From IMG/VR virus record IMGVR_UViG_3300037225_000328, positions 45,793 to 109,792 of that record: a DNA stretch of 64,000 nucleotides; one strand, written 5' to 3'. Each line of letters starts with the position of its first letter. Within the stretch, counting starts at the first letter, position 1. Below are positions 150 to 63,071 of the stretch, piece by piece. The notes beneath the pieces are model-generated. The model was not told where the DNA came from. It was given only the letters and a program-made list of their open reading frames with translations, and did not search any database. The stretch is from a virus. Taxonomy: Duplodnaviria; Heunggongvirae; Uroviricota; Caudoviricetes. Made by a program: the position numbers and the translations under genes.

Positions 150-638
150 TTATACCTTATTTAATACTGCAAATTTACCGTGATATTTTAATGCTGCTTC
201 ATTATAAGCTTTTGCTGCGTCTTTTTTATCATCAAAGAGTCCCAACCAAATTTCTTTCCAATTGATACAAATACGAGCTTGCCATTTATTGTGTTGTTTA
301 TTCCAAGTTACACCTTTATAGCCCGATTTATTATTTTTACGAATCCCCTGATTATGTTGATTTTGAGAATTAGTGGCAATTCGCAAGTTACTTCGTCTAT
401 TATTTAATCCATTTCTATCTCTATGATCAATCTTTTTCCCGGCGATATGAAGTCTCATTCTTTTTAAAATTTCTCGATGCATCCGAATACGTATTGTTTT
501 TAATCCAATTCTCACCGATCTTTTTGCATAGTGTGTTTTATGAATATAACACGCATACCACTTCCACTGCATCAAGAAATCATAATCTTGATCATCAACT
601 AACGCAAACTTACCTTGTGTCAATGGAATTCGTTTCAT
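150..638 (-). CDS. HNH-AP2 freestanding homing endonuclease-like protein (copy 1)
   Basis: HNH motif (IDHRDRNGLNNRRSNLRIAT) followed by an AP2-type DNA-binding domain (SGYKGVTWNK...AYNEAALKYHGKFAVLN). Conserved N-terminus IPLTQGKFALVDDQDYDFLMQWKWY is shared with three other copies. ATGA-type overlap with the ligase start at 635-638. Confidence 0.7.
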   Translation of the reverse strand: MKRIPLTQGKFALVDDQDYDFLMQWKWYACYIHKTHYAKRSVRIGLKTIRIRMHREILKRMRLHIAGKKIDHRDRNGLNNRRSNLRIATNSQNQHNQGIRKNNKSGYKGVTWNKQHNKWQARICINWKEIWLGLFDDKKDAAKAYNEAALKYHGKFAVLNKV

Positions 639-1720
639 TCTTCGTCTCGCTTTCTTAGGAGTCTTGCTTCTTTTGGAATTCCTTCATCACTTAGTTCACG
701 ATAAATAAATGTCACTGACTCACCCGTTGTATATTTAAGTCCTTGGGTTCCCTCTGGCATATCCTCACCAGGATGTTGTGCAGCATACTTTACACTTTCG
801 GTCTTAGCAAAAAGACGTTCTGAATCAGTAAGGCCGCCTAATTCAAGTCGCTTCCCTTTATAATCAACAATCAATGCCCCAATCTTACCAAGATGCTTGG
901 AACCTTTATTAGTCTCGCGTCCCGCTGTGAAACCTGTAATAGTTCCTTCAGCATCATTGAAGGGTTTATACTTTAACAGTGTACGCACACGGCGAGGCTC
1001 CCATTGAGACATAGGATCTCGAAGTACAATGCCTTCCCCTCCATCGGATACTGTTTTCTCTAAAATCTCTTCAATAACAGCCTCATAATTTTCTTCGGGC
1101 AATTTACGTTGACGAAGTAAATAAACAGGTCCATCATCAAAAGCTGCTCTAAGACATGTCAACTCTTCATCAAATGTTGCTCCATCTTGAACCCGCATGA
1201 AGCCACTACCAAGAATCTCATTTCGCCGGTGAATGAATTCTGATATCTTATCTGAGTTCATCTGACAATACATATTTGCATTACGAATTAATCCATCGAA
1301 TGCAAAATTATCCGGGTGTGGCGAACCAAACACTGCGTATTCAACATCTGACCAACCCGGTCCCGGTTCATCATCAGCACAAATCGACCGTAGAAGCTGA
1401 AAATTTCCTCGACCGGCCCATAGCTCTCCATCCAGCATTATCGGCGGAAGTTTATTAAGAAACCAATCGGGAGCCATAATAGGATTACCATACCGGCTCC
1501 ATAGGCCCGTTGACATTGGTTTGATACGATTTTTTTCATGCTGGGTTTTAGGATCTATTACTCCTGCCCACGGAACTTTTCGGGTTGGAATACCACGAGT
1601 TAATCCACCATCCCAAAAAGCACGAGTACCATCAAGCTTCTCGGATACATACCAACCAGCCACTTTATACTTTGTTGGTTGGTATTTATGAGCCAGCATT
1701 AGGAATTCACGAAGTTGCAT
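635..1720 (-). CDS. ATP-dependent DNA ligase
   Basis: Nucleotidyltransferase motifs: motif I KLDGTR, motif III LDGELW, motif IV EGIVLR, motif V LLKYK. Confidence 0.75.
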   Translation of the reverse strand: MQLREFLMLAHKYQPTKYKVAGWYVSEKLDGTRAFWDGGLTRGIPTRKVPWAGVIDPKTQHEKNRIKPMSTGLWSRYGNPIMAPDWFLNKLPPIMLDGELWAGRGNFQLLRSICADDEPGPGWSDVEYAVFGSPHPDNFAFDGLIRNANMYCQMNSDKISEFIHRRNEILGSGFMRVQDGATFDEELTCLRAAFDDGPVYLLRQRKLPEENYEAVIEEILEKTVSDGGEGIVLRDPMSQWEPRRVRTLLKYKPFNDAEGTITGFTAGRETNKGSKHLGKIGALIVDYKGKRLELGGLTDSERLFAKTESVKYAAQHPGEDMPEGTQGLKYTTGESVTFIYRELSDEGIPKEARLLRKRDEE

Positions 1721-1731
1721 CCTTAACTCCT

Positions 1732-2313
1732 TTACTTAACAGCATCAATAGCCGGGCGCTTCAATAGTTGCTCAATTCGGTATGTCAAATCCTTAACTTG
1801 TTTCATCAACTCCAATTTCTCTTCCGTTAGTTTCTTAATAGCCGGGGTAGCAACTTCAAGTTTTGCTATCAAATTCGCATTAGCTTGGGATAGCCTTGCA
1901 TTTTCAATCGCTAATTGTTCATTAGCCTGGCCTAAATCTTTCATCTGCTCTTCATCATCGTCCTTACCCGCTTGCAAAGCAGCATTTGCATCTGTAAGTT
2001 CCTTAATAAGACTCCCGGCTCGTTCCAATTCCTTCATCAATCGGGCCGATTCGGCTTCATTACTTCGTAAAGCTGCAACGGCTTTTACAAGTTTAGCATC
2101 CAATGCTTCAATTTCTCGTGATTGACGCACACAAACTTCCTGAGTTCGAGAGGCAAATTCAATAGCATTATCCGCAGCAATAATATCTACTTGACGAAAT
2201 GCCTGAGCCGTTTGAGTATTATTAACCAAATTTAAATACACATTAGTACCATAGTGATCCGCAGCAACCACAGCAAGCGCCAATAATGCAACAAGAGAAT
2301 AAAGATACTTCAT
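1732..2313 (-). CDS. N-terminally anchored or secreted coiled-coil protein (i-spanin-like topology)
   Basis: Hydrophobic N-terminus MKYLYSLVALLALAVVAA followed by an extended Ala/Glu/Leu/Lys-rich coiled coil. Confidence 0.4.
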   Translation of the reverse strand: MKYLYSLVALLALAVVAADHYGTNVYLNLVNNTQTAQAFRQVDIIAADNAIEFASRTQEVCVRQSREIEALDAKLVKAVAALRSNEAESARLMKELERAGSLIKELTDANAALQAGKDDDEEQMKDLGQANEQLAIENARLSQANANLIAKLEVATPAIKKLTEEKLELMKQVKDLTYRIEQLLKRPAIDAVK

Positions 2314-2960
2314 TGAATAGCCTCCACATACCGTTGATAAAGATTTAACCGCAATAAACTAATTGTTTGTTGACTTAATCCAACTTCTTCCCCAATTTCT
2401 GCATCCGTATAACCGGCTTCTCGCAATTCAAGAATTCGCCGTTCAATAGGCGTACTAATAATAGCCTCTAATGCATCCCGGAATTCAAAATCACTCTCAG
2501 TATCAACTGGTACTCCATCCAGCGCGTCATTTGAAAATTTCACAAGTGCTTCCTTTCCTTTTTTCCAGTTTCGTATTTGTGACATCACGGGAATTGGAAT
2601 AACTGAATTTTTCATCAGCATTTCATTAACTTGTTGAAGAACGGCAACCGCCGTATAATTTAATAGTTTTGTATGGTGGACAGGTGGATCTCCAGTTATA
2701 AATTTATCAACAAGAGTGACAACTGTTAATGCCGCCTCACTTACCATATCTTCTAATTCATTCCAATTTCCGGGATATACTGCAAGTATTGTTCCAACAC
2801 ATCGTTTAGCAACTAACATTAAATACTGAATTAATAGTTCTTTTGCCTTTTGGTCGCCCCAATATATCTGTGTTACTATCTCACCCAACTTATCAGCATC
2901 GGGAACTGATGGTAAATTATCCATTAGAGGATGATTAAACATTAATGGTTCAAGTTTCAT
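2310..2960 (-). CDS. phage sigma-factor-like protein
   Basis: C-terminal region-4-like HTH (RRILELREAGYTDAEIGEEVGLSQQTISLLRLNLYQR) and a region-2-like segment (LIQYLMLVAKRCVGTILAVY...LVDKF). Confidence 0.5.
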   Translation of the reverse strand: MKLEPLMFNHPLMDNLPSVPDADKLGEIVTQIYWGDQKAKELLIQYLMLVAKRCVGTILAVYPGNWNELEDMVSEAALTVVTLVDKFITGDPPVHHTKLLNYTAVAVLQQVNEMLMKNSVIPIPVMSQIRNWKKGKEALVKFSNDALDGVPVDTESDFEFRDALEAIISTPIERRILELREAGYTDAEIGEEVGLSQQTISLLRLNLYQRYVEAIQ

Positions 2961-3441: not shown

Positions 3442-3451
3442 GATGTTGCCT

Positions 3452-3643: not shown

Positions 3644-3652
3644 AATTATCTC

Positions 3653-4023: not shown

Positions 4024-4167
4024 AACTCCGGTTTTGTACTTTCGCTCCGAGCAACTGCAAGTCCTTGCTTAATTGCTCGCTTTTTTGCTCTCAAAGAACT
4101 TCCCTTGTCCCCTGCTTTATACGAATATTTCTTCTGTGAACCCCATTGCCAAGCGGGTTTACCTTTA

Positions 4168-4578: not shown

Positions 4579-4754
4579 GAAGATACCGGTACTTCTACTC
4601 CCTCAATTCGTACTAGCAACTTGCTTAAATCATCTCGGGTTTTTGTACGATACTCTGGAATACCCCAGTGGTGAGCTAGAGCCATTAATTGGGGAAGCGT
4701 TAAATTCGCTAACCAACCCTGTCGTTCTTCTATCGTTAGTGCCATAATAGTCTC

Positions 4755-5501: not shown

Positions 5502-6128
5502 TCACCTATTATGTTTTCTAAGGTATTTAATTGCATTTTTAAGAACATTTATATCTTCATCAAAGAATCCCAGTGCTGCATTACATTTGTGACAAAGTAA
5601 GCCTCGAATCTTACCTGTTTTATGATTATGATCAACTGATAATCGTCGTTTAGATTTTTTACCACATATAGTACAACAATTATTTTGTTTTCTTTTTAAT
5701 TCATTGTATTGGGTTAAAGTAAGATTATAAATCTTTTTTAATCGAGATTTTTCTTTAGATTCTTTAACTTTAATCGTATTTGTTTCTCGATATCGTTTTC
5801 TATCTTGTAATCTTTGATCTCGATGTTTTTGATAGCTTTTTTGACTTGATTCTTGTCGTTCTTTTTTATGCTTATTATGATAATCTCGTTCATAATTAGA
5901 ATTCTTCTTTAATCTCTTTTTACGAGATTTTTTATTAGAAGCTCTTGATTGCTCTAAATGAGTGTCCCTATATTTACGTTTTTCTTCACTTCGTTTCTCC
6001 CGGTGTCTTGCATAAGATTCTCGATTTAAACGTCTGGTAGCCTCAAGGCGCTCTTGATGTGTATTGTAAAGTTTCTTACTCATTGAATTGTCTGATCTGT
6101 TTTTCTTGTACTTAACGGGTTGACACAT
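5502..6128 (-). CDS. HNH endonuclease, T4 endonuclease VII-like
   Basis: CTICGKK...VDHNHKTGKIRGLLCHKCNAALGFF; Lys/Arg-rich N-terminal half. Paralogous to 21904..22392. Confidence 0.65.
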   Translation of the reverse strand: MCQPVKYKKNRSDNSMSKKLYNTHQERLEATRRLNRESYARHREKRSEEKRKYRDTHLEQSRASNKKSRKKRLKKNSNYERDYHNKHKKERQESSQKSYQKHRDQRLQDRKRYRETNTIKVKESKEKSRLKKIYNLTLTQYNELKRKQNNCCTICGKKSKRRLSVDHNHKTGKIRGLLCHKCNAALGFFDEDINVLKNAIKYLRKHNR

Positions 6129-7395: not shown

Positions 7396-9798
7396 TTACC
7401 TCTTGTATGTAATGTGAACTAATTCGGAACTTGATTTCTTTTCCGCCCAATTTGCCATATTCAACATCCATTTCATTCCAATCAATGGGACTTGTTCCCG
7501 ATACGATTCAACGGCTTCGGTAACTACATCAGCCACTTGTTTAATAAAATTTGGATGAGTTACGCACATAATTTCATCATGCACATTAATTGGAGCAACC
7601 ACAAAGGGATTAACTCCATACGGTTGTAAATTCCAAATCTTCCGTTGTACTCGTTTAGTTATTTCAGCCCCAGGCGATTGAATTAAGTGATTATTGGCAG
7701 CCCTCATATCAGCAGCTTGAATCTGAAACGCAGCCCCATAAAGAGCACTGCTTACTGCCCCACCCACAGTTTGAATGCGATCTCGACGTACACATTTAAT
7801 TGGGCATTGCTTCCATAATTTTGGAGTATTTGAGGCCAGGTTAAATAGTGCTTTACAAATCTTATTCTCTAATGTAAAGTATCGTCGAAACCCCAGAAAT
7901 GTTTCTACATAGTCATCTGGATCATTCCACACAACTTGTGTACCGATACCACCGGGCTGACGCATTGAACAAAAGCTATCATAAATCCGCATACGGGCTT
8001 CCCCGATACCAGGATATTTGGAAACCCACCGACCGTATGCCGCCTCGGCTACTTTTAATGGTATACCTAGCTTCTGATTCCAGGTATTATAATCACCACC
8101 ATAAAAGAATCCAAACACCCCTTGCTTGCCTTTAGTATACATATCAAGAATCTTGCTACCATCAGAGGCAACTACTTCTTCATAAGTATGCCCTGGAAAT
8201 AACTCGACCCCCAATAAAGCGTGAATCTTTTTACCATCCAATAGTGTTTGATGAAGGGCCGGATCTTTAAATACCGCATCAGCTAATGTTACCTCGAATG
8301 AATCAAAGTCACCGCCACAAAGAACATAACCTGGCCAAGTCAATGGAAACATCTTTCTCACAACCTTAGCGTGAGAAATTCCCTGAGCATTCAAACCATC
8401 ACCGCCTGACATTCGTGATGATAGTGTGCCAATTACTTTGAAGCTAGCATGAAACCTACCGGCTTTTAACAGTTTTTTATACAGTTCAATTTCTTTATTC
8501 GCAATTTTAATTTCTAAAAGTTCTTGGGCACGTTTTGATGCTGGATGCTGACCTATTTGCAAAGCCCCTTTACCGCCGCATCGAAGACAGGGATTGCCTT
8601 TATCATCTGTTCCTGATGTTCCACATCTATCGCATGGTTCTTCTTTTTCAATATACCAATTTGCTCCATCTCGTATTTGTTCAAGATTTGCTTTTTTAGT
8701 TGATTCCTCCAAAAGCATAGCTTCCATATCATTCATACAAACTGTAATATAATGACGAACAGCCGGTGGTTTATTAATATTGATTGGAGAATTATCAACA
8801 ATCTTCTGAGCCCCTGTCATCAACTCTTCAATTCCTTCACGATCTATTGTGAAACCGTGCCAACGAACAGCGGCAACCATGTGTGCAAGAGTTGAATCAT
8901 CATCGCCTAATTCAGGACAACCAAAATGCTCATATAATTTGCGAGTATAAACAATATCATCACTCGCATACTCGCGGGCAGGTTCATTCGTTGCCCAATG
9001 TTCAATGTGTTTTGCAATCACACCGGGCCATGCAAATCCTATCGGCTCACCTTCATTATCATAAGCATCCCATAATGGGGGTTTTGCAACCGCTAACGCT
9101 GTCGGGGCATACCCTAATTCTGCGGGTCGATATTCACTTCCTAATTCAACATCCTTAAAATAATGTTTAGGTTTTAAGTTAAGTGCATACTCAGCAAGAT
9201 ATTTCAAACCGCCAGCCGCGTGAAATTTTAAGACAACATCTTTAAAGTCTTTATTAATTGCCCCTGTTTTCTTGCTAACAATATCCATCACCTTCCATCG
9301 AGGAGCCGACTTATCGACCGTTTTGGCGAAATAAATTCCATCAAGCTCAATAGTTTTTTCAAGATGCTCCGCAAGGGCCGGGGCAAGTGCGGCGGGTACT
9401 CGTCGTATTTTAATGTTCTCTCTTTCCATTAGTGATTGCATTGGACCTTTTCGAGAAATAAGCATAAGATCACAAGCGGCCACTGGTTTAATACAAGGGC
9501 CATCCATTCCATCTGCTTCACGCATTGCTATTTCATTAATGTGTTGTTCTGGAACCCAATCTCCTGGAAATAGTCGGAAGATCGTATACATCTTCGCTAA
9601 AAGAAACCAGTCGAAGGTGTTATTAAATCCAATATAATTATTCTCAGTAAATAATTCAATAAGTTTTAATGTTTCACTTATAGGTTGTCGCCAAGGCTCA
9701 TAAAGAATAATTGGTCCATCTTCAAGGGCATATTGAATCAACACTGCCATCGAGTGCAATCCGCAACTTTCACAATCAACAAAGATATTTTTAGACAT
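7396..9798 (-). CDS. family A DNA polymerase with N-terminal 3'-5' exonuclease
   Basis: Exo I FVDCES; motif A GGDFDSFEV; motif B KGKQGVFGFFYGG; motif C VHDEIMCV. Confidence 0.75.
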   Translation of the reverse strand: MSKNIFVDCESCGLHSMAVLIQYALEDGPIILYEPWRQPISETLKLIELFTENNYIGFNNTFDWFLLAKMYTIFRLFPGDWVPEQHINEIAMREADGMDGPCIKPVAACDLMLISRKGPMQSLMERENIKIRRVPAALAPALAEHLEKTIELDGIYFAKTVDKSAPRWKVMDIVSKKTGAINKDFKDVVLKFHAAGGLKYLAEYALNLKPKHYFKDVELGSEYRPAELGYAPTALAVAKPPLWDAYDNEGEPIGFAWPGVIAKHIEHWATNEPAREYASDDIVYTRKLYEHFGCPELGDDDSTLAHMVAAVRWHGFTIDREGIEELMTGAQKIVDNSPININKPPAVRHYITVCMNDMEAMLLEESTKKANLEQIRDGANWYIEKEEPCDRCGTSGTDDKGNPCLRCGGKGALQIGQHPASKRAQELLEIKIANKEIELYKKLLKAGRFHASFKVIGTLSSRMSGGDGLNAQGISHAKVVRKMFPLTWPGYVLCGGDFDSFEVTLADAVFKDPALHQTLLDGKKIHALLGVELFPGHTYEEVVASDGSKILDMYTKGKQGVFGFFYGGDYNTWNQKLGIPLKVAEAAYGRWVSKYPGIGEARMRIYDSFCSMRQPGGIGTQVVWNDPDDYVETFLGFRRYFTLENKICKALFNLASNTPKLWKQCPIKCVRRDRIQTVGGAVSSALYGAAFQIQAADMRAANNHLIQSPGAEITKRVQRKIWNLQPYGVNPFVVAPINVHDEIMCVTHPNFIKQVADVVTEAVESYREQVPLIGMKWMLNMANWAEKKSSSELVHITYKR

Positions 9799-10315
9799 TA
9801 TTCAAAACTGCAAATTCTTTATGATATTTAATTGCCGCTTCATTATAAGCTCTTGCTGCATCTTCTTTATCATCAAAATAACCTAGATGAATTCTTTTAT
9901 GTCTATAACAAATTTGACTGTGCCATTTTTTAAGACGCCTATTCCAACTAACACCTTTATAACCAGAAGTATTATCTTTTCTAATTCCTTGATTCATTTG
10001 ACTTTGAGAATTTGTTGAAATACGCAAATTATTTCTTTGATTATTAAGTCCATTTCTATCTACATGATCAACTTTTTTACTCTCAACATCGAGATTCATT
10101 CTTTCTGCAATAACTCGATGCATTTGAATTATAATATAATTTATTTTATTAGAATGTCTGTGTGCGTAGAAAAGTTTATTATAATATTTTTCTGCATACC
10201 ACTTCCATTGCATCAAGAACTCATAATCTTGATCATCAACTAACGCAAACTTGCCTTGTGTCAATTTAATCTTTTTCATAAAGAAGCCCGAATCTCTAAT
10301 ACTTGCCGCAGCCAC
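9791..10315 (-). CDS. HNH-AP2 homing endonuclease-like protein (copy 2)
   Basis: Same HNH and AP2 architecture. About 60 bp at the 5' end are nearly identical to copy 1 (plus 571-625 vs 10201-10262). Overlaps the DNA polymerase start by 8 nt. Confidence 0.7.
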   Translation of the reverse strand: MAAASIRDSGFFMKKIKLTQGKFALVDDQDYEFLMQWKWYAEKYYNKLFYAHRHSNKINYIIIQMHRVIAERMNLDVESKKVDHVDRNGLNNQRNNLRISTNSQSQMNQGIRKDNTSGYKGVSWNRRLKKWHSQICYRHKRIHLGYFDDKEDAARAYNEAAIKYHKEFAVLNNV

Positions 10316-12304: not shown

Positions 12305-12519
12305 ATAATGTTTCCCCAGGACGTATATTCAAATCCCGCAACCACTAAGCAAAGTGATACTACAATCATCCGATAAAACTTCCGTGTAATAAAAAGGCAT
12401 ACATAAGAATGCCAGCTAAAACTAATGCCCCTAACATTATACCAACACCAACTAAAGCAACCCCTCCAAGAATAAATTTCCACATAATTTATACTCCGAA
12501 GTGAATTTCTCTGTGACAA
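12301..12519 (-). CDS. small Cys/Trp-rich membrane protein
   Basis: 72-aa hydrophobic ORF. Confidence 0.3.
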   Translation of the reverse strand: MSQRNSLRSINYVEIYSWRGCFSWCWYNVRGISFSWHSYVCLFITRKFYRMIVVSLCLVVAGFEYTSWGNII

Positions 12520-12922
12520 TTAGCACAAAGTAAATCACATTTATCAAGTTCTTTTTTTAGTTTTTTCCAATTTCTTCGTCTATTAGCCATTATTTCTTTT
12601 CTTTTTGGATCTCTATGATGAAATTCTAACGCTGCTAAACATTTATTATATCCACACTTTTTACATCCCCCCCCCCCCCGCCTTTGTATTGAATTGACTT
12701 TAATTTAATTTGTAAATAAAGATCATAATTACGGCATGATATACTACAATATAAAGCCCGAATATTTTTGGGTTGAAACCATTTCTTACAAGTTTTACAG
12801 CGTTTCTTTTTGTGTTTTACTTTTAATTTACTATTCCAATTCTTATAACTACATATTCGAGAACAAGTTTTATGATCCTTCCGTTTAGGTTTAAATGTTT
12901 GATGGCACCAAATACATCTCAT
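12489..12922 (-). pseudogene. zinc-ribbon HNH endonuclease interrupted by a G13 homopolymer (frameshifted or phase-variable)
   Basis: The track ORF 12635..12922 encodes a CxxC-rich N-terminus ending in GGGGGDV. The +1 frame after the G13 run (plus C13 at 12667-12679) reads GCKKCGYNKCLAALEFHHRDPKRKEIMANRRRNWKKLKKELDKCDLLCANCHREIHFGV*. This is a canonical HNH motif ending at 12489-12491. Confidence 0.6.
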
Positions 12923-14439: not shown

Positions 14440-15510
14440 TTAATGGGAATCTGTCTTTCTTACAGCTAGATAATCAACTGATACCGCCTTGGCAATCAAT
14501 CGTCCGCCCATAATATCTGAATACTCTTCATGAAGCGGTGTAATTACAATACCTTCTCGACCTTTAAATGAAGAATTAACCTCATTTGAATCAACAACAG
14601 TTGTAGGACCATCAACAAGCTGGTCAACAAGTTCCGGGTAAAATGGTCCCACATATAGAACTGGAACTGTTGGAATACAAAACCGCTTACAAGCCGCTTC
14701 TACCTCTCCCCAGTTAATATAGTTACCATCTACTGCCACATCAAATACTCGATAACCACTCTGACCTTCAACTCCATAATCCATAAACTGAATCTTAGAG
14801 CCGTAGATTTCTCCAAATACAATAACATTTGGCCCATAATTTTCTGCAAAATACCAAAGCATCGCTTTCATGTCTTCTGTCAATGGGAGCCAATAAAGTG
14901 TTCGATTGCTATTGGTGTCAAATTCTTTCTTATTCGTTTTATGAGAACCACAAAAGTAATCACCACCAAGAAGCGCAACACGAGAATTCGTCCCGTGAAT
15001 TTTCTCAGTAACTCTTATAGGAGTCCCCGTCTTAAATGCCCCTTTGAATCGAGCATTTCGATAGTTTTCAATATCAGTATAGCAATGAAACCGTGGATCA
15101 CTCTTAACTTGATCCCCAGTTTTATTCCACCAAAGCGGTTCCTTTGGTTCATATTTTACCCCGTGAAATCGATCTGTTAGATCCGTCCCAGCAGGAATAT
15201 CCTGAAGTCCCAGTACAAACCCAAAAGAAGGAACTCCGCGCAAACGGGCGGCTGCCACTCGGCAGTGAGTCTTCCGGCCATCTCCTGGGTAGATTTCTGA
15301 TTTAAGATATTTATCCACGCCCAATTGAGCAGCTATTTCTTCCGGTATCAAAATATCCGGAGGAAAATATGCAACCACATCACCGGGCTTAAATTCACCC
15401 CGACCCACGATAGTTGTATATTCACCAATTGTTGCAATATCAAGACGATCCGCATTAGGATGTGGTTTTACTGCGTCAATCTGTACCGTTATAATACGAA
15501 CGTCACTCAT
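14440..15510 (-). CDS. RNA ligase, Rnl2-like
   Basis: Motif I EKIHGTN (T4 Rnl2-type lysine nucleotidyltransferase); motif IV REGIVITP. Confidence 0.6.
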   Translation of the reverse strand: MSDVRIITVQIDAVKPHPNADRLDIATIGEYTTIVGRGEFKPGDVVAYFPPDILIPEEIAAQLGVDKYLKSEIYPGDGRKTHCRVAAARLRGVPSFGFVLGLQDIPAGTDLTDRFHGVKYEPKEPLWWNKTGDQVKSDPRFHCYTDIENYRNARFKGAFKTGTPIRVTEKIHGTNSRVALLGGDYFCGSHKTNKKEFDTNSNRTLYWLPLTEDMKAMLWYFAENYGPNVIVFGEIYGSKIQFMDYGVEGQSGYRVFDVAVDGNYINWGEVEAACKRFCIPTVPVLYVGPFYPELVDQLVDGPTTVVDSNEVNSSFKGREGIVITPLHEEYSDIMGGRLIAKAVSVDYLAVRKTDSH

Positions 15511-17147
15511 TTTCTCTCCATTAATTCGTCAATTGCTGTCACAAAATACTTTGGTTCCGGCGCTTCAAACAAAACCGATAAATCTAAACTTTGAACCCGA
15601 GAAGCCATTGTGTCCCGATAAGCACGATCTGTTACCATTTTCATAATCAATTGTTCATATTCTTGTTCTGTTGTGGCAACCAATTCACTCAACCCAACTC
15701 TACGGAGCAAATACGATGCCACTCGATTATACCATTGGTTTCCTTCCCAGGTGATAACCGGAATTCCAAGGAATAAAGCATCTACTACACTATTATACCC
15801 TCCCCACGGGTATGAGTCAAGTGAAAAATGTCCATCTTCCAGATTTTTTAGGTGTTGTTGATACGGCTGATTAGGATAATAAACCGCTTGCCCCTTAAAA
15901 ATATCATCCATATCTCGTAGAAAGGGGTATGCACAATTGTATCTATTAACACCGCAGCCAGGGAAGAAATGATAAATAATAGAGATGGGTGAACAAATTT
16001 GCACATCTCGAAGCAGTTTAAGAGTTGGATAATTGTACTTTGTGACGCCCCAAGGTACATTGACAATAACCGGCTCAGAAGCTTTCTGGGGCCGCGTGGG
16101 CACGCATGGCGGCCTTTCTGGGCGACTACCGCTCCCTGGTGCCAGAATTACTTTTTCATAATAATTCATTTCCAACAAATCTAATCGTTCAGCAGATTGT
16201 CCAGTAATAAAGTAATCAATTTGTGCCCCGAATGTCGAGCCAGGATTTCCATTTCCTGTTACTTGAATTGGCGCAATTCTACAATTTGCTAACATTACGG
16301 ACTCAATTGACATTCCTATATCACAAAAATAAACAAGTTGAAAATCATTTTCATAGATTTGAGACACATCCAGTTGTTTATTTTTATATTCAACACGTTT
16401 TACATTTTTAAACAATCTGGTATCAAGACGATTATCTTCTGGCCCCAAGGCTACTAATGTTACAGTGTACTTCCGGGCTAACTCTTCAATCAAACTATAC
16501 ATCGTCTTATAAACCGCATGGCCTTCTACCCAACGATCTGCGATAAACGCAATATTATCTGCTTTAGGTGTATTAATAAACTCTGGCGCATGTCTTTGAA
16601 AACCAGCATTAATCTGGCCTCTAACAATTGGGGACATTATGGGATCAATGTAACTCCCTAAGAAATAATTAGTCGTTGAACGAGACGTTGGTTGATAACG
16701 AACATCCAAAAATGAAAGATGCCACTTACTATTTTCCCATAACAATTCTGTAGTACGTCCTGCGGCCGGTTGTAAATACATATCATACCAAAGTGATGCT
16801 AATTCGGCATCATAGTCAAAAAATTCTCGGGGATTAATTTGAATTTGATTCCGAACAGTATATAAAATCATTTGCTTTGGATATGTCTTAGGTCTAGTGC
16901 GCAAAATCTCCAGTGTGGAGTCTGTCGTTTTAAATGAAGACATTGCAATCACATTTGCCAAAACATGATTCGCCGTTAAAAGTGCAATCGCTTCATCCCG
17001 AGTCAATAGAAAATTAGGATCTGAAAATGTATGAAGAATATTTTGTGCAAGTGTGTTAATCTTAATTGCCGAGGCGGGAGATATTTTATTATAACCCACT
17101 TGGCAATAATAAAAAAGTTCGTCAAATATCTGTTTAGAGGTCAACAT
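15507..17147 (-). CDS. GT41-family (OGT/SPY/HMW1C-like) glycosyltransferase, paralog 1
   Basis: C-terminal GGYNSVVDALFLGIPVITWEGNQWYNRVASYLLRRVGLSELVATTEQEYEQL matches the OGT catalytic-lobe pattern (G.T..ALW.G.P.VT.PGE..ASRVAAS.L..LGL.ELIA...EYE). No TPRs. Confidence 0.55.
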   Translation of the reverse strand: MLTSKQIFDELFYYCQVGYNKISPASAIKINTLAQNILHTFSDPNFLLTRDEAIALLTANHVLANVIAMSSFKTTDSTLEILRTRPKTYPKQMILYTVRNQIQINPREFFDYDAELASLWYDMYLQPAAGRTTELLWENSKWHLSFLDVRYQPTSRSTTNYFLGSYIDPIMSPIVRGQINAGFQRHAPEFINTPKADNIAFIADRWVEGHAVYKTMYSLIEELARKYTVTLVALGPEDNRLDTRLFKNVKRVEYKNKQLDVSQIYENDFQLVYFCDIGMSIESVMLANCRIAPIQVTGNGNPGSTFGAQIDYFITGQSAERLDLLEMNYYEKVILAPGSGSRPERPPCVPTRPQKASEPVIVNVPWGVTKYNYPTLKLLRDVQICSPISIIYHFFPGCGVNRYNCAYPFLRDMDDIFKGQAVYYPNQPYQQHLKNLEDGHFSLDSYPWGGYNSVVDALFLGIPVITWEGNQWYNRVASYLLRRVGLSELVATTEQEYEQLIMKMVTDRAYRDTMASRVQSLDLSVLFEAPEPKYFVTAIDELMERK

Positions 17148-18990
17148 AAAATGGACCTTTATCTCGGGACTTTTGAATTAGGTTATGATTTTCTAAAATA
17201 AAATCAAAGGCTTTAACGAACCACTGAGGTTCATCATTATCACAAAGAAGCGATTTTAACCGATCTACACTAGCAACCTGCGAGCGCGCTTCTTCTAATT
17301 TTTCAGATTTAGTTAATAACTCAACTGCTTTGTCAACATATTCTTCTTGACTCTTACAAACTAAATTGCTAAGTCCTACTCTCCGTAATAAAGCCGAGGA
17401 AGCACGATTATAAAATCGGGTCCCTTCAATTGCCAGGGCCGGGCACCCAACAAAGAAACTATCTACAATAGTATTGTAACCACCAAAGGGCCAGGAGTCC
17501 AATGCAATTGTCCCTTTTTCAAGTTCAATCAAATAGTCTTCATATGGTAACTCAGGTAATAAGACAAACTCATCACCAAACATCTGAGTTAAATCACGGA
17601 TACAAGGTATCATTGAATTATACCGCCCGATAGTCCACGCAGGGAAAAGACGTACCATTGAATTTGGCACTCGGTCTAAAATTTTACGAAGATTACAAAG
17701 CATTGTATAATTTATTTTTGGACTTGTCCATGCACAATTAATAATAGGTCTCTCAAACGATGGATTTCTTCGAGTATAATTAGGAAATACAGGGTGGGCT
17801 CCCAATCCTGGAACAAGAACTAATCTCTCACTATAATTTTCAAGAGCCTTTTCAGCTACTTCTGTTTCTTGTCCACCAATATAATAGTCACACAGCGAAC
17901 CAAATGTACTCGACGGATGCCCGTAACCTGTTACCATAATTGGAGCTAAGCGAAGATTGGCTAAAATTACAGATTCATTTGACATGCCCACATCGGGGAT
18001 ATAGGCTAAATGACAATCCAGTTTTTGAAAAATAGACAAATCCAAATTACCTTTTGAAATATCTCCGGTGCAAATTACATCTTTAAATTGAGTTTTTGCA
18101 AGCGATTCACTATCAACTCCCAAATGAACCAGTGTTAAATCATATTTCTTTCCTAAAGCTTCTAATTGGTGCGCACTACTCTTATAGACCGCACTGGTAG
18201 GATACCAGCGCCCTGTAATAACTGCGATTTTTTTCTTTGATGTTTTTACTGGGGTTTTAAAATATGGGACTCTATTCCGAATTTGTTGATTCAAAACTGT
18301 TTTTATTTCTCGATCTTTTTGAGGAATAGCATACGTACAATCAAAATACGCGGGTGATGTCAATAAAAGAACCATGTTAAATTTATCAGGAATTTTAGAG
18401 TAGTGCCTAGAAATATTATCTGCTAGTAATTTTGTAGGCGAGCCACAACTAGATGCTGAGTATGTAATCCACCACAATGTTGCTAATTTAGAATTCAAAT
18501 CAAAAAATACATCCTGATTAAACATTGGCTGATTTCGGCATGAATACATTACCAAAATCTTAGCAAAATTTCCTGTTTGATGCATGATATGACGCAATAA
18601 TGAATCCGTAGTTTCATAAGAGGAAACAGCAATCAAATTTGCCATCAAATGATTCATTGTTATTAACGTAGGAATATGATTCTCTGGAATATTAAATTCA
18701 GATTGCGAAAAAATAAATAAAATAGCTGCAACAGTATCATCCAATATAGACTGGTCTACTGACCCTATACTTGTATAGCATGAAGACTCAAAATCATGCA
18801 ACATATCAATAATTCGTTTGCAAACTTCGTCAAAATTATTCTGAGAATAAAGTTGCATTAACTCTTTTCCAGTAACATGGTGGTCAAATAATTTCATTGA
18901 ACCCTCTGAATTGTTTGTTGTCTTAAAGTAAACACTGGGCAAGTAATTCCTCTGGCAGTCAATTCTAAACAAATATCCTGAGTACGCCAA
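17134..18990 (-). CDS. GT41-family glycosyltransferase, paralog 2
   Basis: Paralogous to 15507..17147 throughout (MANLIAVSSYETTDS; GGYNTIVDSFFVGCPALAIEGTRFYNRASSALLRRVGLSNLVCKSQEEY). The true start is probably the ATG at 18897, just after the methyltransferase stop. Confidence 0.55.
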   Translation of the reverse strand: MAYSGYLFRIDCQRNYLPSVYFKTTNNSEGSMKLFDHHVTGKELMQLYSQNNFDEVCKRIIDMLHDFESSCYTSIGSVDQSILDDTVAAILFIFSQSEFNIPENHIPTLITMNHLMANLIAVSSYETTDSLLRHIMHQTGNFAKILVMYSCRNQPMFNQDVFFDLNSKLATLWWITYSASSCGSPTKLLADNISRHYSKIPDKFNMVLLLTSPAYFDCTYAIPQKDREIKTVLNQQIRNRVPYFKTPVKTSKKKIAVITGRWYPTSAVYKSSAHQLEALGKKYDLTLVHLGVDSESLAKTQFKDVICTGDISKGNLDLSIFQKLDCHLAYIPDVGMSNESVILANLRLAPIMVTGYGHPSSTFGSLCDYYIGGQETEVAEKALENYSERLVLVPGLGAHPVFPNYTRRNPSFERPIINCAWTSPKINYTMLCNLRKILDRVPNSMVRLFPAWTIGRYNSMIPCIRDLTQMFGDEFVLLPELPYEDYLIELEKGTIALDSWPFGGYNTIVDSFFVGCPALAIEGTRFYNRASSALLRRVGLSNLVCKSQEEYVDKAVELLTKSEKLEEARSQVASVDRLKSLLCDNDEPQWFVKAFDFILENHNLIQKSRDKGPFYVDL

Positions 18991-21884: not shown

Positions 21885-21912
21885 ATTATACCATCTCAAA
21901 CGGCTAAGTCAA
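21885..21912 (-). promoter_or_regulatory. sigma70-consensus promoter TTGACT-N16-TGgTATAAT
   Basis: Minus strand reads ctcTTGACTtagccgtttgagaTGgTATAATgtaa. The -35 lies at plus 21907-21912 and the -10 at plus 21885-21890, with a 16-nt spacer and an extended TG. Confidence 0.6.
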
Positions 21913-22392
21913 GAGATTTTTTCTTGATTTTATTTCTTCATCAGTAGGTTGTGAAGTATTTTGATCTAAATATTCGGCTGCCTTTCTTAAAAGCGTTGAA
22001 TTATCTTGAAATTGTCCTAATCCAAAATTACATCGACCACACAAAAGTCCGCGAACTTTTTTAGTTAAATGATCATGATCAACAAGAAAATTAGTATTAT
22101 ATTTACCCAACGGTAATTTGCTGCCACAAATAGCACAAACTCCATTTTGCTTTTTAAGCATAATATTATATTCTTGTAAAGTGGTATCGAAATTCTTTTT
22201 TAATTCTCTGTTACGGCCAATATCTGGATTTTCTTTGTTATACTTTTTAACACGTTGTTTTATTTTTTCCTTATGTCGTTGATAATGTTCTGCTTTTTGA
22301 ATTTTTAAACATGTTTTACAATATACATTCCTATAATCTCTATTAGAGTCTGTCAATAAAATTCCACATCTGGCACAGCCTTTTTCTTTCAT
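21904..22392 (-). CDS. HNH endonuclease, T4 endonuclease VII-like (second copy)
   Basis: CAICGSK...VDHDHLTKKVRGLLCGRCNFGLGQF. Confidence 0.65.
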   Translation of the reverse strand: MKEKGCARCGILLTDSNRDYRNVYCKTCLKIQKAEHYQRHKEKIKQRVKKYNKENPDIGRNRELKKNFDTTLQEYNIMLKKQNGVCAICGSKLPLGKYNTNFLVDHDHLTKKVRGLLCGRCNFGLGQFQDNSTLLRKAAEYLDQNTSQPTDEEIKSRKNLLT

Positions 22393-29640: not shown

Positions 29641-30069
29641 TACTACTTATGATACCATTTTGCCTCTCTTTACCAATAGAATCTAAAAATTTTTTGAGAA
29701 TCTTTTTGATTACATCTTATAGGGTATTTACTCTTCCCTAATAAGTCATATTATTTTTTACTTAATCTTTCAACAGTTAAGTCACAACTTGTTTTTATAA
29801 AAGAGAGTTATGTCATTAGAAGCCGAATTAACTATCTCTCAGACTACAACCAGTAGAAATAAAAATCAAATAAAGTTATATTATATATAGGAGATAATAC
29901 AGAAAATAGTTATTTTTCAAAATAATGCTATAACTTGATTCTATAACTAGATTTAGAATCCGCCTGTTGAATAATGAAGTAAATACCCTATAAGATGTAG
30001 TCAAAAAGATTCTCAAAAAAATCCAAGAATTCATTGGTACCAACCTATGAAATGGTATCATAAGTAGTA
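29641..30069. promoter_or_regulatory. symmetric inverted-repeat region with divergent promoters (candidate ori or centromere-like site)
   Basis: Perfect 20-bp inverted repeat tactacttatgataccattt (29641-29660) and aaatggtatcataagtagta (30050-30069). The arms extend to about 90 bp and include a 41-bp block with one mismatch. Each arm carries an outward-facing TTGGTA-N16-TGgTATCAT promoter. The central roughly 250 bp are very AT-rich. Confidence 0.55.
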
Positions 30070-33388: not shown

Positions 33389-33606
33389 TGGATTCAAAGC
33401 TTGCTAGACAGTTTATTGCTGGAAGTTTTGCGGATTTTTTAATCTTTCTTGCTGCACTTCCGGATCCAATTATTGTTGGAGGAACTTATCCGAGAAATAA
33501 GTTAATGCAGGCATTTCAAAGTTGGACTGAAATTAGAGATTTTAATACAAATAATGCCGATCTCTCAGCATGGAGAACAGCTTGCAGCCAGGGTGTGTTA
33601 AAATGA
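33388..33606 (+). CDS. hypothetical protein
   Basis: 72-aa ORF; ATGA overlap with the upstream gene. Confidence 0.35.
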   Translation: MDSKLARQFIAGSFADFLIFLAALPDPIIVGGTYPRNKLMQAFQSWTEIRDFNTNNADLSAWRTACSQGVLK

Positions 33607-34082
33607 AACAAATTCCACTCACACAAGGCAAGCTTACTTTAGTAGATGATCAAGATTATGATTTCTTGATGCAATGGAAATGGCATATTCAAAAAAGTCA
33701 CAAAACAATTTATGCGATACGAACTGATAATTTCAATCACACAACAATTCGGATGCATCGTATTATTGCAAAAAGAATGAGATTAGAAGGACATATAGAT
33801 CATAAAGATCAAAATGGATTAAATAATCAACGGGATAATTTGCGATTTGCGACAAACTCTCAACAAGGTGCAAACCAAAAGAAGCATAACAATAATACAT
33901 CAGGGTATAAGGGTGTCTATTGGAGAAAAGATAATCATAAATGGAGGGTAGAAATTAATGTCAATGGAAAAAGAATAAATTTAGGTTGTTTTGAAAATTC
34001 TAAAGATGCAGCAAGAGCTTATAATGAAGCAGCTATAAAATATCATGGTGAGTTTGCTGTTTTAAATGAGGTAATATTATGA
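33570..34082 (+). CDS. HNH-AP2 homing endonuclease-like protein (copy 3)
   Basis: IPLTQGKLTLVDDQDYDFLMQWKWH...IDHKDQNGLNNQRDNLRFATNSQ...AP2 domain. ATGA overlap with the DnaQ start. Confidence 0.7.
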   Translation: MENSLQPGCVKMKQIPLTQGKLTLVDDQDYDFLMQWKWHIQKSHKTIYAIRTDNFNHTTIRMHRIIAKRMRLEGHIDHKDQNGLNNQRDNLRFATNSQQGANQKKHNNNTSGYKGVYWRKDNHKWRVEINVNGKRINLGCFENSKDAARAYNEAAIKYHGEFAVLNEVIL

Positions 34083-34696
34083 CAACTCCCTACCCAAGTT
34101 TAACGTTGCAAGGTAATTTGATGGTCGCCATCGATGTTGAAACAACCGGAAGATTAGCCGGCCACCATGAAATTGTACAAATCGCGGCGCAACCACTTAA
34201 TACACAACTAGAACCTTTAGAAGGGGTTCTACCATTTTATATGAATATCCAACCTGAATATATTAATAGAATAGAACCTGACTCAATGCGTGTTCATGGT
34301 TTATCACTATCGAATCTTAAAGAGACAGGTTTGGAGAAATGGAAAGTTGCCGATTTATTTGATGAGTGGTTTCAACGGTTAGATTTACCACATCGGAAAT
34401 CTTTGATTCCATTGGCTCATAATTGGGCATTTGAAGCTGGGTTTCTAAAACACTGGTTAGGTTTAGAATCCTTCAGCCAATTTTTTCACCCCCACCCGCG
34501 AGATACAATGTTACTCGCTCTCAGCATCCAAGATCGGGCTGTCTTCCGGGGTGAGAATCTCCCCTTCAAGTCCTTTGGGTTGGGTGCTCTCTGCAAGTGG
34601 TTCGACATCCCTCTCGACGACCACCACGACGCTCTCGCTGACGCTCTCGCTGTTGCTAGGCTCTATAAAGGGCTCCTCTTGCTGGAGTTGATTTAA
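34079..34696 (+). CDS. DnaQ-like DEDDh 3'-5' exonuclease
   Basis: Exo I VAIDVETTG; Exo II HNWAFEAGFL; Exo III HHDALADALAVARLY. Confidence 0.65.
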   Translation: MTTPYPSLTLQGNLMVAIDVETTGRLAGHHEIVQIAAQPLNTQLEPLEGVLPFYMNIQPEYINRIEPDSMRVHGLSLSNLKETGLEKWKVADLFDEWFQRLDLPHRKSLIPLAHNWAFEAGFLKHWLGLESFSQFFHPHPRDTMLLALSIQDRAVFRGENLPFKSFGLGALCKWFDIPLDDHHDALADALAVARLYKGLLLLELI

Positions 34697-54454: not shown

Positions 54455-55081
54455 TTAATTTAAGTATTTGTAACCATCTGGAAACTTTCCAGATTTTTTC
54501 CAACGTTGGAATTTGTATTTAAGATTTCCTGGTTTGATACCCAAAGTCTTTTCAGCAAAGCATAGACTCTTATAAACAATATTATTAACCAATACTTTTC
54601 TAGGTTTATGGTATCCTGCTTGTTTTTTAAATTCTAACGAGCGTTTTTTACCTTTATTTGCTTGGCTAATTTTTTGTTTATGCTCTTCAGAAAACTTTTT
54701 TCCGAGATTTGATTTATTGCCTTTTGCAGCAAGACTCATTTTTTGTTTGGTTTCCGTAGAATGTTTTTTGCCTGCCCATGACGGAGGCACTCCACCCCCT
54801 TCATGAATATTATAACCATTAGGTTTTTGTGTATTATATTCTTTAATCTTTTCGATTTCAAGAAATTTAATAAAACTCTCATTTTCGTCTTGTCGAAGAA
54901 TCTCAAATATAAAGTTTTCTTTACCATATTTTTTAATGGCGTTGAAAACTAATATTGAACCATTGCCAGAAAAATGTTGATATTTACGTTTTTCTGGATC
55001 GGTTGTAATCCCAATATAGGATTTATTATTCAACAGATTAGTGAGTTTATACAAGTACCACATAAACTTATTATAAACCAA
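54455..55081 (-). CDS. GIY-YIG homing endonuclease
   Basis: WYLYKLTNLLNNKSYIGITTDPEKRKYQH GIY-YIG core, with a Lys-rich DNA-binding C-terminus (NUMOD-like). Confidence 0.7.
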   Translation of the reverse strand: MVYNKFMWYLYKLTNLLNNKSYIGITTDPEKRKYQHFSGNGSILVFNAIKKYGKENFIFEILRQDENESFIKFLEIEKIKEYNTQKPNGYNIHEGGGVPPSWAGKKHSTETKQKMSLAAKGNKSNLGKKFSEEHKQKISQANKGKKRSLEFKKQAGYHKPRKVLVNNIVYKSLCFAEKTLGIKPGNLKYKFQRWKKSGKFPDGYKYLN

Positions 55082-55839: not shown

Positions 55840-56346
55840 TTATTCTAATAAAAGTTTAAACCATCGAGGAATTCCATTTTCAATGGTTAATTCATAAGAA
55901 CCATCTTCAGTTGGTTGTGCTGGAACCCAAGCATTTACACCGCTAGCTCCTCTTACTCCAGCGTGTCCAGCGGCTCCTGTTGGCCCAGAGGCACCAGACG
56001 GGCCAACTGCTCCAGTAGCGCCTGTAGTCCCTTTAAGTCCGGTAGGACCTGAAGCACCAGATGCACCACTTGAGCCAACTGCTCCTGTAGCTCCAGCGAC
56101 TCCTGTAGCTCCAGCGGCTCCTGTAGCTCCAGCGGCTCCTGTAGCTCCTGTAGGTCCTAATGAAGGACCGATTGGTCCGGTAGGGCCAATTTTTGTTTTT
56201 ACATAAGTTTCAACTGATATTACTTCAGTAGATAATGCATCATAATCTGCTGAATCAGGTACTTGATCCTCTTGACGAGAGGCCCTATTAGTGCCATCAA
56301 GTCCATCCCAGACTTCACCGGGGAATACTGATGTTTGTTGTGACAT
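55840..56346 (-). CDS. collagen-like (G-X-Y) fibre protein, short paralog
   Basis: About 30 G-X-Y triplets. The N-terminal domain is shared with the other two collagen-like genes ([34 protein letters not shown]). Confidence 0.7.
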
Positions 56347-56355
56347 TGTAGTCTC

Positions 56356-56877
56356 CTATTCTGAAATCATGGGTTGCCAAGTAGCATTACCATTTTCAAC
56401 AACCAACTTGTAATGTGCGTCAGCCGATGGTTGCGAAGGAACCCAGGCAGAACCAGCGCCCGTGGGGCCGGCGGCTCCTGTGGCACCTGTAGGTCCTGTT
56501 GGACCGGAACCCGTAGCTCCAGTTGCACCTGTAGCCCCAGTTGCACCAGTTGGTCCTGATGGTCCCCCACCAGGTCCGACTGCACCAGTAGCTCCTACGG
56601 TTCCAGTAGCTCCATTGGCTCCGGTCGCCCCAGCTACTCCAGTAGCTCCGGTTGCTCCACTCACTCCTCCTGCGGGACCTGTAGGACCGGTGGCACCAGT
56701 AGCACCAGTTGCTCCGATTGGATTACTATTAAGATAAGTTTCTACTCCAATCGCTTCTGCGGATAATGCGTCATAATCTGCTGAATCAGGTACTTGATCC
56801 TCTTGACGAGAGGCCCGATTAGTACCCTCTATTCCATCCCAGACTGTACTGGGAAATCTTGCTGTTTGAGTTGCCAT
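56356..56877 (-). CDS. collagen-like (G-X-Y) fibre protein, short paralog
   Basis: (GATGPTG)n repeats; the same N-terminal domain. Confidence 0.7.
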
Positions 56878-56901
56878 TCTTTTCTCCTATTTTGTTAAAG
56901 G

Positions 56902-62103
<5,202 letters not shown>

Positions 62104-62202
62104 TTATGCTGTATCTGTAACCCATGTGGCAATGCCACTATTTATTTGAAGTCGATAAAAGCCATTACTTACCGGGGGTGGTGGTAAACCCATAAATCAC
62201 CA

Positions 62203-62505
62203 TTAATGAATCTGTTCTTCACCATAATAAGTTATATTTAACACACCGTTAGCTGTTGCATCAATAAATTGGATGGCACCTAAATCACCATCATAATCAA
62301 GCGCTGAATTAACAGTTAAAAGCATTCCAACATTATTTGTTGGGGCTGTGCCATCATCGCGCCATCGAACGCTGCTCGTTTCAGCTTGTATCAAAGCGCT
62401 AAGCGCACTCCGTGGAGCTAAGCTAACAGCACTGGATAGATTGGTAATTTGTTGGTATCCCAGGGCTTTTCGATGCCCGTGAACGATGAATACTGGGAGA
62501 GCCAT
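62203..62505 (-). CDS. hypothetical protein
   Basis: 100-aa ORF upstream of the collagen-like genes. Confidence 0.4.
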   Translation of the reverse strand: MALPVFIVHGHRKALGYQQITNLSSAVSLAPRSALSALIQAETSSVRWRDDGTAPTNNVGMLLTVNSALDYDGDLGAIQFIDATANGVLNITYYGEEQIH

Positions 62506-62534
62506 GTTATATTTTCCTTTTTATTTAAATTTAC

Positions 62535-62562
62535 TTGACTTTTAAGTAATTTATGATATACT
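62535..62562 (+). promoter_or_regulatory. sigma70-like promoter TTGACT-N16-TATACT for the plus-strand HNH-AP2 gene
   Basis: -35 at 62535-62540 and -10 at 62557-62562. The SD aggag at 62568-62572 precedes the likely true ATG at 62580. Confidence 0.4.
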
Positions 62563-63071
62563 TAAATAGGAGATATTTTATGTGGATCTTATTAACAAAA
62601 GGCCAAAAAACCTGGGTGGATGATATTGATAGTGATTTAGCTAATTATAAGTGGTATTATCATATTAATCACAAAGGTGGTACTGGTTATGCTGCAAGAA
62701 TGATTGGAGGCCGAAAACATAAAAAAGTTCTCTTTATGCACAATGTTATTGCTGACCGAATGGGATTAATACATTCACGTAAAGATACAATTGATCATAG
62801 AGATCGGAATAAATTAAATAATTCGCGCTCAAATCTTCAAATATCCAACTCATCGCTTCAGGAAGTTAATAAAGGTTTAACAAAACAAAATTCCACAGGC
62901 TATAAAGGAGTTTCTTTTCATACAGGGACTCAAAAATATCGGGCAGTGATTACGGTTAATGGAAAACAGATTCATATCGGCGAATTTAAAACTCCACAAG
63001 AAGCTGCATTAGCATATAATCTTAAAGCTCTTGAAATTTGGGGTCTTCGGGCTTGGTTAAATCTTATTTAA
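62553..63071 (+). CDS. HNH-AP2 homing endonuclease-like protein (copy 4)
   Basis: ILLTKGQKTWVDDIDSDLANYKWYY...IDHRDRNKLNNSRSNLQISNSS...AP2 domain. The likely true start is 62580. Convergent, with a 4-nt overlap to the minus-strand structural gene. Confidence 0.65.
   Translation: MIYLNRRYFMWILLTKGQKTWVDDIDSDLANYKWYYHINHKGGTGYAARMIGGRKHKKVLFMHNVIADRMGLIHSRKDTIDHRDRNKLNNSRSNLQISNSSLQEVNKGLTKQNSTGYKGVSFHTGTQKYRAVITVNGKQIHIGEFKTPQEAALAYNLKALEIWGLRAWLNLI

Follow-up and report, generated by a model that had tools for sequence, protein, structure and literature searches.

An uncultivated tailed phage with a high load of free-standing homing endonuclease-type genes, most of them of one HNH-AP2 family

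Background

The Xanthomonas phages Xp10, OP1 and Xop411 carry dispersed, multi-copy HNH(N)-AP2 genes at variable positions, with 6–8 copies per ~44 kb, and multiple HNH endonuclease genes are also listed for T5, T1, Rtp and RB16/RB43 (PMC2248197). As cited in PMC2248197 and PMC10448857, the HNH-AP2 family of homing endonuclease genes (HEGs) was defined by Magnani et al. in 2004. The Vibrio phage ICP1 has the IPA-HNH HEGs, which show the HNH plus AP2 architecture (PMC10448857). Phage T4 does not have the HNH-AP2 family (PMC10448857), which is the dominant one in the phage described here. The sequence investigated is a stretch of 64,000 nucleotides (nt), referred to as the window, from positions 45,793 to 109,792 of the IMG/VR virus record IMGVR_UViG_3300037225_000328. 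It originates from an uncultivated tailed phage with a genome of ~110 kb that is found in peat and soil metagenomes.

A first-pass annotation of the window, made from the sequence alone, had counted at least 8 homing endonuclease genes in the 64 kb. This count holds, with four HNH-AP2 genes, two Endonuclease_7-type genes, one GIY-YIG gene and one split zinc-ribbon HNH gene. The density of HEGs is high but not unprecedented, since 8 per 64 kb is comparable to, and not higher than, the 6–8 per 44 kb of Xp10, OP1 and Xop411. It is probable that a large set of free-standing HEGs, spread by intronless homing, has built up in this phage, with expansion of the dominant HNH-AP2 family, and that these now form an established and maintained load and not a current burst.

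Results

HNH-AP2 genes in the window

The four HNH-AP2 genes were designated HA1 to HA4. HA1 (150..638, minus strand) and HA2 (9791..10279, minus strand) each encode 162 amino acids, HA2 being read from the ATG at 10279 within an open reading frame (ORF) that reaches a GTG at 10315. HA3 (33603..34082, plus strand) encodes 159 amino acids in an ORF that begins at 33570, and the divergent HA4 (62580..63071, plus strand) encodes 163 amino acids in an ORF that begins at 62553. Alignment of the paralogs and the gene calls in other assemblies indicate that the true starts of HA2, HA3 and HA4 lie inside the longer ORFs of the first-pass annotation. For HA4, a start at 62553 was tried in the exact-protein look-up and returned no match; the called start is 62580.

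All four ORFs have the common architecture that had been described for them, with a Pfam HNH_3 domain (PF13392) followed by an AP2 domain (PF00847). In each copy HNH_3 occupies the N-terminal half and AP2 is the C-terminal DNA-binding domain. The HNH_3 scores are 29.5 bits for HA1, 31.3 for HA2, 27.8 for HA3 and 19.0 for HA4, against a cut-off of 24.8. Residues D71, H72, N84 and N96 are invariant in the alignment of the four window copies. Across 60 members of the family D71, N80 and N84 are invariant, with H72 and N96 at least 90% conserved, and the catalytic D-H...N...N residues are kept in all nine copies present in the genome. The N-terminal module combines a DNA-binding part with the HNH nuclease and resembles I-HmuI, the nuclease module having an I-HmuI-like fold, and the proteins belong to the HNH-AP2 family. 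No sequence-level match for the HNH part was found in the PDB.

HA1, HA2 and HA3 are 64–66% identical to one another in protein sequence and 71–73% identical in nucleotides over the whole gene. HA4 is ~40–43% identical to the others in protein sequence and shares just one 33-nt patch of DNA with them. The GC content of the HEGs is 28–34%, against 39–40% for the genome. This is a large family, with 5,765 database matches at E≤1e-5 and at least 505 loci in IMG/VR.

Junctions with core genes

Inspection of the junctions bears out that the HNH-AP2 genes abut or overlap the genes for ligase, DNA polymerase, DnaQ exonuclease and portal. The stop codon of the ATP-dependent DNA ligase gene (635..1720, minus strand) is overlapped by the ATG of HA1, as ATGA, and the start of the family A DNA polymerase gene (7396..9798, minus strand) is overlapped by 8 nt at the stop of HA2. 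HA3 has ATGA overlaps at both of its ends, with a 72 amino acid gene upstream and with the DnaQ-like (RNase_T) exonuclease gene (34079..34696, plus strand) downstream. HA4 is on the strand opposite to that of the adjacent genes and is convergent with the portal gene (PHROG 145; 651 amino acids in full), the 3' part of which lies in the window (63068..64000, minus strand), such that the two stop codons overlap. A sigma-70-like promoter match, TTGACT-16-TATACT with TG, and an AGGAG Shine-Dalgarno sequence are present 5' of HA4 (62535..62562, plus strand), this being a match to consensus only.

Homology between the paralogs is confined to the region from start codon to stop codon, with flanks that cannot be aligned, and none of the flanking genes for polymerase, ligase and exonuclease is interrupted. 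Each of the four HNH-AP2 genes is an insert of exactly the size of its ORF, located between conserved genes and not within them. An Rfam scan of the window found no families, hence no introns, and the window HEGs are therefore free-standing. The likeness to the seg and mob genes of T4 that had been drawn from the window is justified to this extent, as these are free-standing HEG-type genes beside conserved core genes.

Empty sites in related phages

Syntenic relatives were gathered using the polymerase, portal and exonuclease proteins, and those compared at the HNH-AP2 sites have 48–74% protein identity. The search for empty sites found all four to be empty, in two to five relatives each. Carriage of every copy at identical positions, which had been named as the pattern arguing against recent mobility, is not what these relatives show. 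In L001 and L034 the ligase gene is directly followed by the homolog of the 328 amino acid gene that is downstream of HA1 in the window. There is no HNH-AP2 gene upstream of the polymerase gene in L001, L033, L034, L040 and L043. In L038 an Endonuclease_7 gene is present just upstream of the polymerase, where HA2 sits in the window phage. The HA3 site is empty in L049, which has a DnaQ protein with 74% identity, and in the P0126 contigs (70%). The gene order in L049 and P0126 matches that of the window, with primase/helicase, a small gene, a dGTP pyrophosphohydrolase-like gene, a 75 amino acid gene and the exonuclease, and there is nothing between the last two. At the HA4 site, the portal gene of L047 and L048 is not followed by an HNH-AP2 gene. 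In a tally of ~140 kb of relative loci by tblastn, with HA1 to HA6 and P0011 (HA8) as queries, no HNH-AP2 gene was found.

A candidate close relative, P0122, with an 86% DnaQ match, was rejected, since it belongs to the same clone and differs by an in-frame deletion of 84 nt. One contig of the clone, L062, shows such a deletion within the gene for the DnaQ-like exonuclease, where window positions 34252-34334 are missing, and is otherwise 100% identical.

Endonuclease genes of the whole genome

Exact-protein look-ups matched the window to contigs in JGI samples 3300037087-89, in ENA assemblies with the label WOOD18 and in a number of Logan runs, the longest of these metagenome contigs being 109,792 bp. 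These represent one clonal population, present in ~10 assemblies. Contigs that match the window perfectly in the overlap and reach past both of its ends give a count of ~15 endonuclease genes per ~110 kb, with nine HNH-AP2, three EndoVII (Endonuclease_7), two GIY-YIG and one split HNH. The additional HNH-AP2 genes are HA5 and HA6 (L002/L054) and HA7 to HA9 (L050). Also outside the window are the third Endonuclease_7 gene and the second GIY-YIG gene, and the site of the latter is empty in L045, in which the terminase is 80% identical. The terminase-portal gap of L045 (8934-9734) encodes a 266 amino acid protein with two Endonuclease_7 domains, where the window's phage has a 104 amino acid, single-domain copy.

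Two sets of length differences were considered as possible alleles and rejected. Those at the HA3 site (170, 166 and 159 amino acids) are different start calls on identical proteins, and those at the HA9 site (170 versus 110 amino acids) are different start calls on identical DNA. In the short-read contigs L003, L005, L006, L055 and L056 the end falls 53–57 nt inside the conserved 5' part of HA1, so that assemblies of this phage are broken up by the paralog family.

One contig, L053 (1-6235), is a base-perfect chimera of HA5 and HA9, with its parents in L002 (11443-15502) and L050 (8344-10569). Its left part is 100% identical to the left flank of HA5 and the 5' 217 nt of that gene, to codon ~72, and its right part is 100% identical to the 3' part of HA9 and the right flank. 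The crossover is inside a 27-nt stretch common to HA5 and HA9 (junction 4034-4060). The 53-mer spanning the junction is absent from IMG/VR, and the chimera is known from one contig. L053 is either a deletion variant, which would have lost at least ~14 kb through recombination between paralogs, or an assembly chimera generated by MEGAHIT. P0002, which was at first a candidate for a close foreign homolog of HA5, is a chimera of HA5 and HA9, and its flanks match the same clone at 100% identity.

Divergence and selection

The first-pass annotation had described near-identical DNA segments shared by the HNH-AP2 genes, pairing 571-625 with 10201-10262. A shared 5' stretch is present close to these positions, being 86 nt with 91% identity between HA1 and HA2 (553..638 against 10194-10279, minus strand; D10 of the repeat family finder), so that the segment is real while its description as near-identical is overstated. 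HA1 and HA3 share 85 nt in inverted orientation with 87% complementarity (555-639 against 33602-33686; repeat family I4). The shared stretch encodes a strongly conserved N-terminal motif, with 25 of 29 amino acids identical and with biased, AT-rich codons. Pairs among HA1, HA2, HA3, HA5 and HA6 have 82–90% DNA identity over these 29 codons, largely because nearly all of the amino acids there are conserved. At conserved residues, the fraction of identical codons in these pairs is 0.67–0.90 in the first 29 codons and 0.57–0.70 in the rest. The baseline against the distant HA4 is ~0.57, which reflects the strong AT-rich codon bias. Recent gene conversion of the 86-nt stretch was considered and rejected, as the excess is small (19/22 against 53/76 for HA1-HA2) and by estimate not significant.

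In a Nei-Gojobori comparison of all 36 pairs, synonymous divergence (dS) is 0.78–1.9 and the ratio of nonsynonymous to synonymous divergence (dN/dS) is 0.2–0.5. The HNH-AP2 genes are under purifying selection. No degenerate HNH-AP2 remnants were found in the window by tblastn at E≤1e-3. The ongoing duplication that had been proposed does not agree with a dS of this size in every pair, nor with 100%-identical copies being fixed in every population contig. The copies are old and are fixed in the sampled population, and the evidence speaks against recent duplication or homing.

Phylogeny of the HNH-AP2 family

A neighbour-joining tree was made of the nine copies and 115 other members, 124 in all, from the top 120 matches to HA1 and with no bootstrap. 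Eight of the nine copies fall into two clades, one of HA1, HA2, HA5 and HA9 and the other of HA3, HA6, HA7 and HA8. Neither contains a genuinely foreign sequence, the sole extra member being the chimera P0002. Such lineage-specific clades fit expansion of the paralogs within the lineage. The comparisons support the past insertion of the HNH-AP2 genes and their expansion within this lineage as the probable history of the family.

Alternatively, the paralogs may have arrived separately from a shared environmental pool and not through duplication in the genome. Some of the identities agree with this: the nearest sequence to HA1 is HA2 at 65%, with foreign members at ~62–63% (P0002, at 65%, being the in-genome chimera), for HA3, HA7 and HA8 the nearest neighbour in terms of raw identity is foreign, and HA4 is an outlier at 40–42%. 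The family also has thousands of members from which such acquisitions could be drawn. The grouping of eight of the nine copies in genome-specific clades among 124 members is not what separate arrivals would be expected to give, and the sole close 'foreign' match is a chimera from the same clone. Independent acquisition is therefore possible but doubtful as the origin of the family.

Other endonuclease genes

The two EndoVII-type genes, the GIY-YIG gene and the split zinc-ribbon HNH gene of the first-pass annotation are all confirmed, through Pfam, PHROGs and an ORF in L001. E7a (5502..6128, minus strand) is an Endonuclease_7-type gene (PF02945; Pfam E=3e-23; PHROG endonuclease VII) with a basic N-terminal extension. 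E7b (21904..22392, minus strand) is of the same type (PF02945; Pfam E=1e-21) and has an N-terminal zinc ribbon. The Endonuclease_7 domains of this pair score 81.8 and 76.7 bits (cut-off 23.6). L001 has a positional counterpart of E7a, which L034 and L033 lack, the difference being a clean indel of the size of the ORF. The window copies of E7a and E7b were not themselves seen to be polymorphic.

The GIY-YIG and NUMOD3 endonuclease gene (54455..55063, minus strand; 202 amino acids; ORF to a TTG at 55081) is in the block of head genes. Its GIY-YIG and NUMOD3 domains, at 40.7 and 42.2 bits, are above the cut-offs, and it matches PHROG 314 'homing endonuclease' at E=6e-44. It has no homolog in the portal-to-head-gene interval of L047 and L048, an interval that itself differs greatly.

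The split zinc-ribbon HNH gene (12489..12922, minus strand) is frameshifted at a run of 13 G, read as C on the plus strand (12667..12679, minus strand), which is the window's sole homopolymer of at least 9 G/C or at least 11 A/T. Because of the run, the HNH half is out of frame and the gene lacks an intact reading frame, which a length of 14 or 11 G would restore. The length of 13 is identical in an independent Logan contig, L007, and is thus seen in two assemblies. Repair by the addition of one G gives a match to PHROG 2255 'HNH endonuclease' that crosses the junction (residues 13-143, E=7e-23); Pfam does not recognise the repaired protein, whereas PHROGs does. An intact ORF in the corresponding position of L001 (4067-4549) shares 50% identity with the full-length repaired protein, and L034 is without this gene.

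L001 and L034 are collinear and 74–97% identical in nucleotides across the aligned blocks. The clean ORF-sized indels between them correspond exactly to two genes of the Endonuclease_7 type and to the zinc-ribbon HNH gene (L001 2231-2779, 4067-4549 and 13589-14173). Presence/absence polymorphism was seen just for these EndoVII and zinc-ribbon HNH genes, in this one comparison. These filled and empty pairs mean that, in this group of phages too, endonuclease genes of the other types act as optional inserts.

Other features of the window

The window has ~40% GC, genes mainly on the minus strand and a gene content typical for a tailed phage. Core genes include those for the family A DNA polymerase, ATP-dependent ligase, DnaQ-like exonuclease, DUF5906 primase/helicase, SNF2 helicase, two ParB-like proteins, major head protein, tape measure and portal. 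No match was found between 25 kb of the window and GenBank phages by megablast. By tblastn the best matches of the polymerase to GenBank phages are below 28% identity, and that collection holds no cultured relative. With the primase/helicase as query on viral contigs, no relative was retrieved. No tRNAs were found in the window.

A 62-nt inverted repeat, 87% complementary, is present at 29671-29732 and 29978-30039, in the divergent intergenic region between a ParB-like gene (minus strand) and the primase/helicase gene (plus strand). Both the coding strand and the cumulative GC skew switch near 30 kb. The region 29671-30039 is a candidate for an origin of replication or for a divergent promoter.

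Three genes with collagen-like (Gly-X-Y) repeats, one of which encodes 1,733 amino acids, are located at 55840-62103. They have 49–55% GC, against ~40% elsewhere, and internal repeats of ~912–918 nt. Assemblies break or disagree in this region (L013 versus L014), and there are no homologs in the portal-to-head intervals of L047 and L048. At 15507-18990 are two adjacent paralogous genes for GT41-type glycosyltransferases, which are both ~38–39% identical to a single L001 homolog. This pair is adjoined by genes for an RNA ligase (14440-15510) and a methyltransferase.

Discussion

In the history proposed here for the HEGs, the enzyme would, during co-infection with a relative lacking the gene, recognise a long site that lies within or next to the adjacent conserved gene. 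This site would be nicked or cut on the HEG-less genome, and repair from the endonuclease-bearing genome would copy the HEG, with some of the flank, into the other genome. Occasional ectopic insertion at new sites would then give rise to the HNH-AP2 paralog family. Cleavage, target sites and present-day mobility of the HNH-AP2 enzymes are predictions from sequence. Because dS is at least 0.8 and the genes are fixed in the sampled population, the set is better seen as an established load than as a current burst.

Several results weigh against this history. Contigs from ~10 assemblies all carry HNH-AP2 proteins that are 100% identical and at the same sites. Within the population, no presence/absence polymorphism of HNH-AP2 genes was found and no co-conversion tract was seen; the active intergenomic homing claimed in the first-pass annotation is therefore at most suggested for this family. 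The lack of polymorphism lowers the case for current mobility and leaves the family assignment intact. No relatives between 80% and 100% identity were found, and since the nearest true relatives have at most 80% protein identity the insertions cannot be dated and co-conversion tracts are beyond reach. The paralogs, at 40–65% amino acid identity, are about as far apart from each other as from many foreign members. HA4 is slightly under both curated Pfam cut-offs, yet aligns throughout. Endonuclease_7 proteins can be Holliday-junction resolvases and not HEGs, and the third copy, of 104 amino acids, outside the window may be such a resolvase. Finally, one of the eight window endonuclease genes, the zinc-ribbon HNH, is frameshifted.

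The main rival to homing as the explanation for these genes is domestication, in which they descend from HEGs but are now fixed, immobile and kept for a function that benefits the phage. Such a function may be the cutting of co-infecting relatives (marker exclusion), nicking in replication or recombination, or, for HA4, an aid to packaging. Nine of nine copies are intact, with a dN/dS of 0.2–0.5 despite a dS of at least 0.8, where a fixed and purely selfish gene would be expected to decay, and the copies are identical and fixed in every assembly. The ATGA overlaps would couple translation to that of the ligase and exonuclease genes, and HA4, which is adjacent to the portal gene and has the terminase nearby, is preceded by a promoter-like site of its own. 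However, the relatives replicate without HNH-AP2 genes at these sites, and the frameshifted HEG in the same genome means that decay does occur. Persisting opportunities for homing would also give purifying selection. As for packaging, the HNH proteins known to be associated with it are of a different HNH family without AP2, which counts against this role for HA4. Domestication is an unlikely explanation for the set, though the data do not distinguish it from continuing homing.

Two further possibilities are tentative. If L053 is real, HEG paralogs may be reshaping the genome now through ectopic recombination, with the loss of at least ~14 kb that includes three other HNH-AP2 genes. Separately, the run of 13 G may be a slippage-controlled switch that limits a toxic endonuclease, and not the mark of a dead gene. 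An origin of the repeated genes in errors of assembly or gene calling is effectively refuted, for although contigs break repeatedly in the conserved 5' ends of HNH-AP2 genes and L053 is chimeric between two copies, the copies differ in 27–50% of their nucleotides and each was recovered identically, with its unique flanks, in independent JGI, ENA and Logan assemblies of different samples.

Comparison with known systems

This phage is a clear environmental example of a lineage with ~15 endonuclease genes, nine of which are of one HNH-AP2 family. The examined stretches of related phages have no HNH-AP2 gene and few HEGs of other types. This contrast could help in asking why HEG load varies among related phages, a question that is open according to PMC10448857. 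The four pairs of empty and filled sites are concrete substrates for mapping HNH-AP2 target sites. The find leaves the understanding of HEGs as elements unchanged.

I-HmuI, the HNH nicking enzyme of Bacillus phage SPO1 (PDB 1U3E), is encoded in an intron, whereas the window genes are free-standing and have a C-terminal AP2 domain. The C-terminal module of I-HmuI is a helix-turn-helix. The T4 seg (GIY-YIG) and mob (HNH) genes are alike in being small, AT-rich genes between conserved replication and structural genes, with the same sites empty in relatives. The load of T4, at 15 HEGs per 169 kb, is similar to the ~15 per ~110 kb here. Homing has been demonstrated by experiment for the T4 HEGs; in the window phage it is a prediction. 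ICP1 also has one copy inactivated by a frameshift, which in the window phage affects a different type of HNH, the zinc-ribbon. The ICP1 proteins are too divergent for Pfam HNH_3, while three of the four window copies pass its cut-off.

The closest likeness is to Xp10, OP1 and Xop411, which also have proteins of ~160 amino acids with an N-terminal H-N-N HNH domain, lacking cysteine dyads, and a C-terminal AP2. They likewise have several dispersed copies, in positions that vary between related phages and with flanks that are not conserved. These Xoo phages have truncated and degenerate copies, whereas the nine copies of the window phage all appear to be intact. As multi-copy HNH-AP2 families are already documented in Xp10, OP1, Xop411 and ICP1, the window phage is therefore a further case of a known phenomenon.

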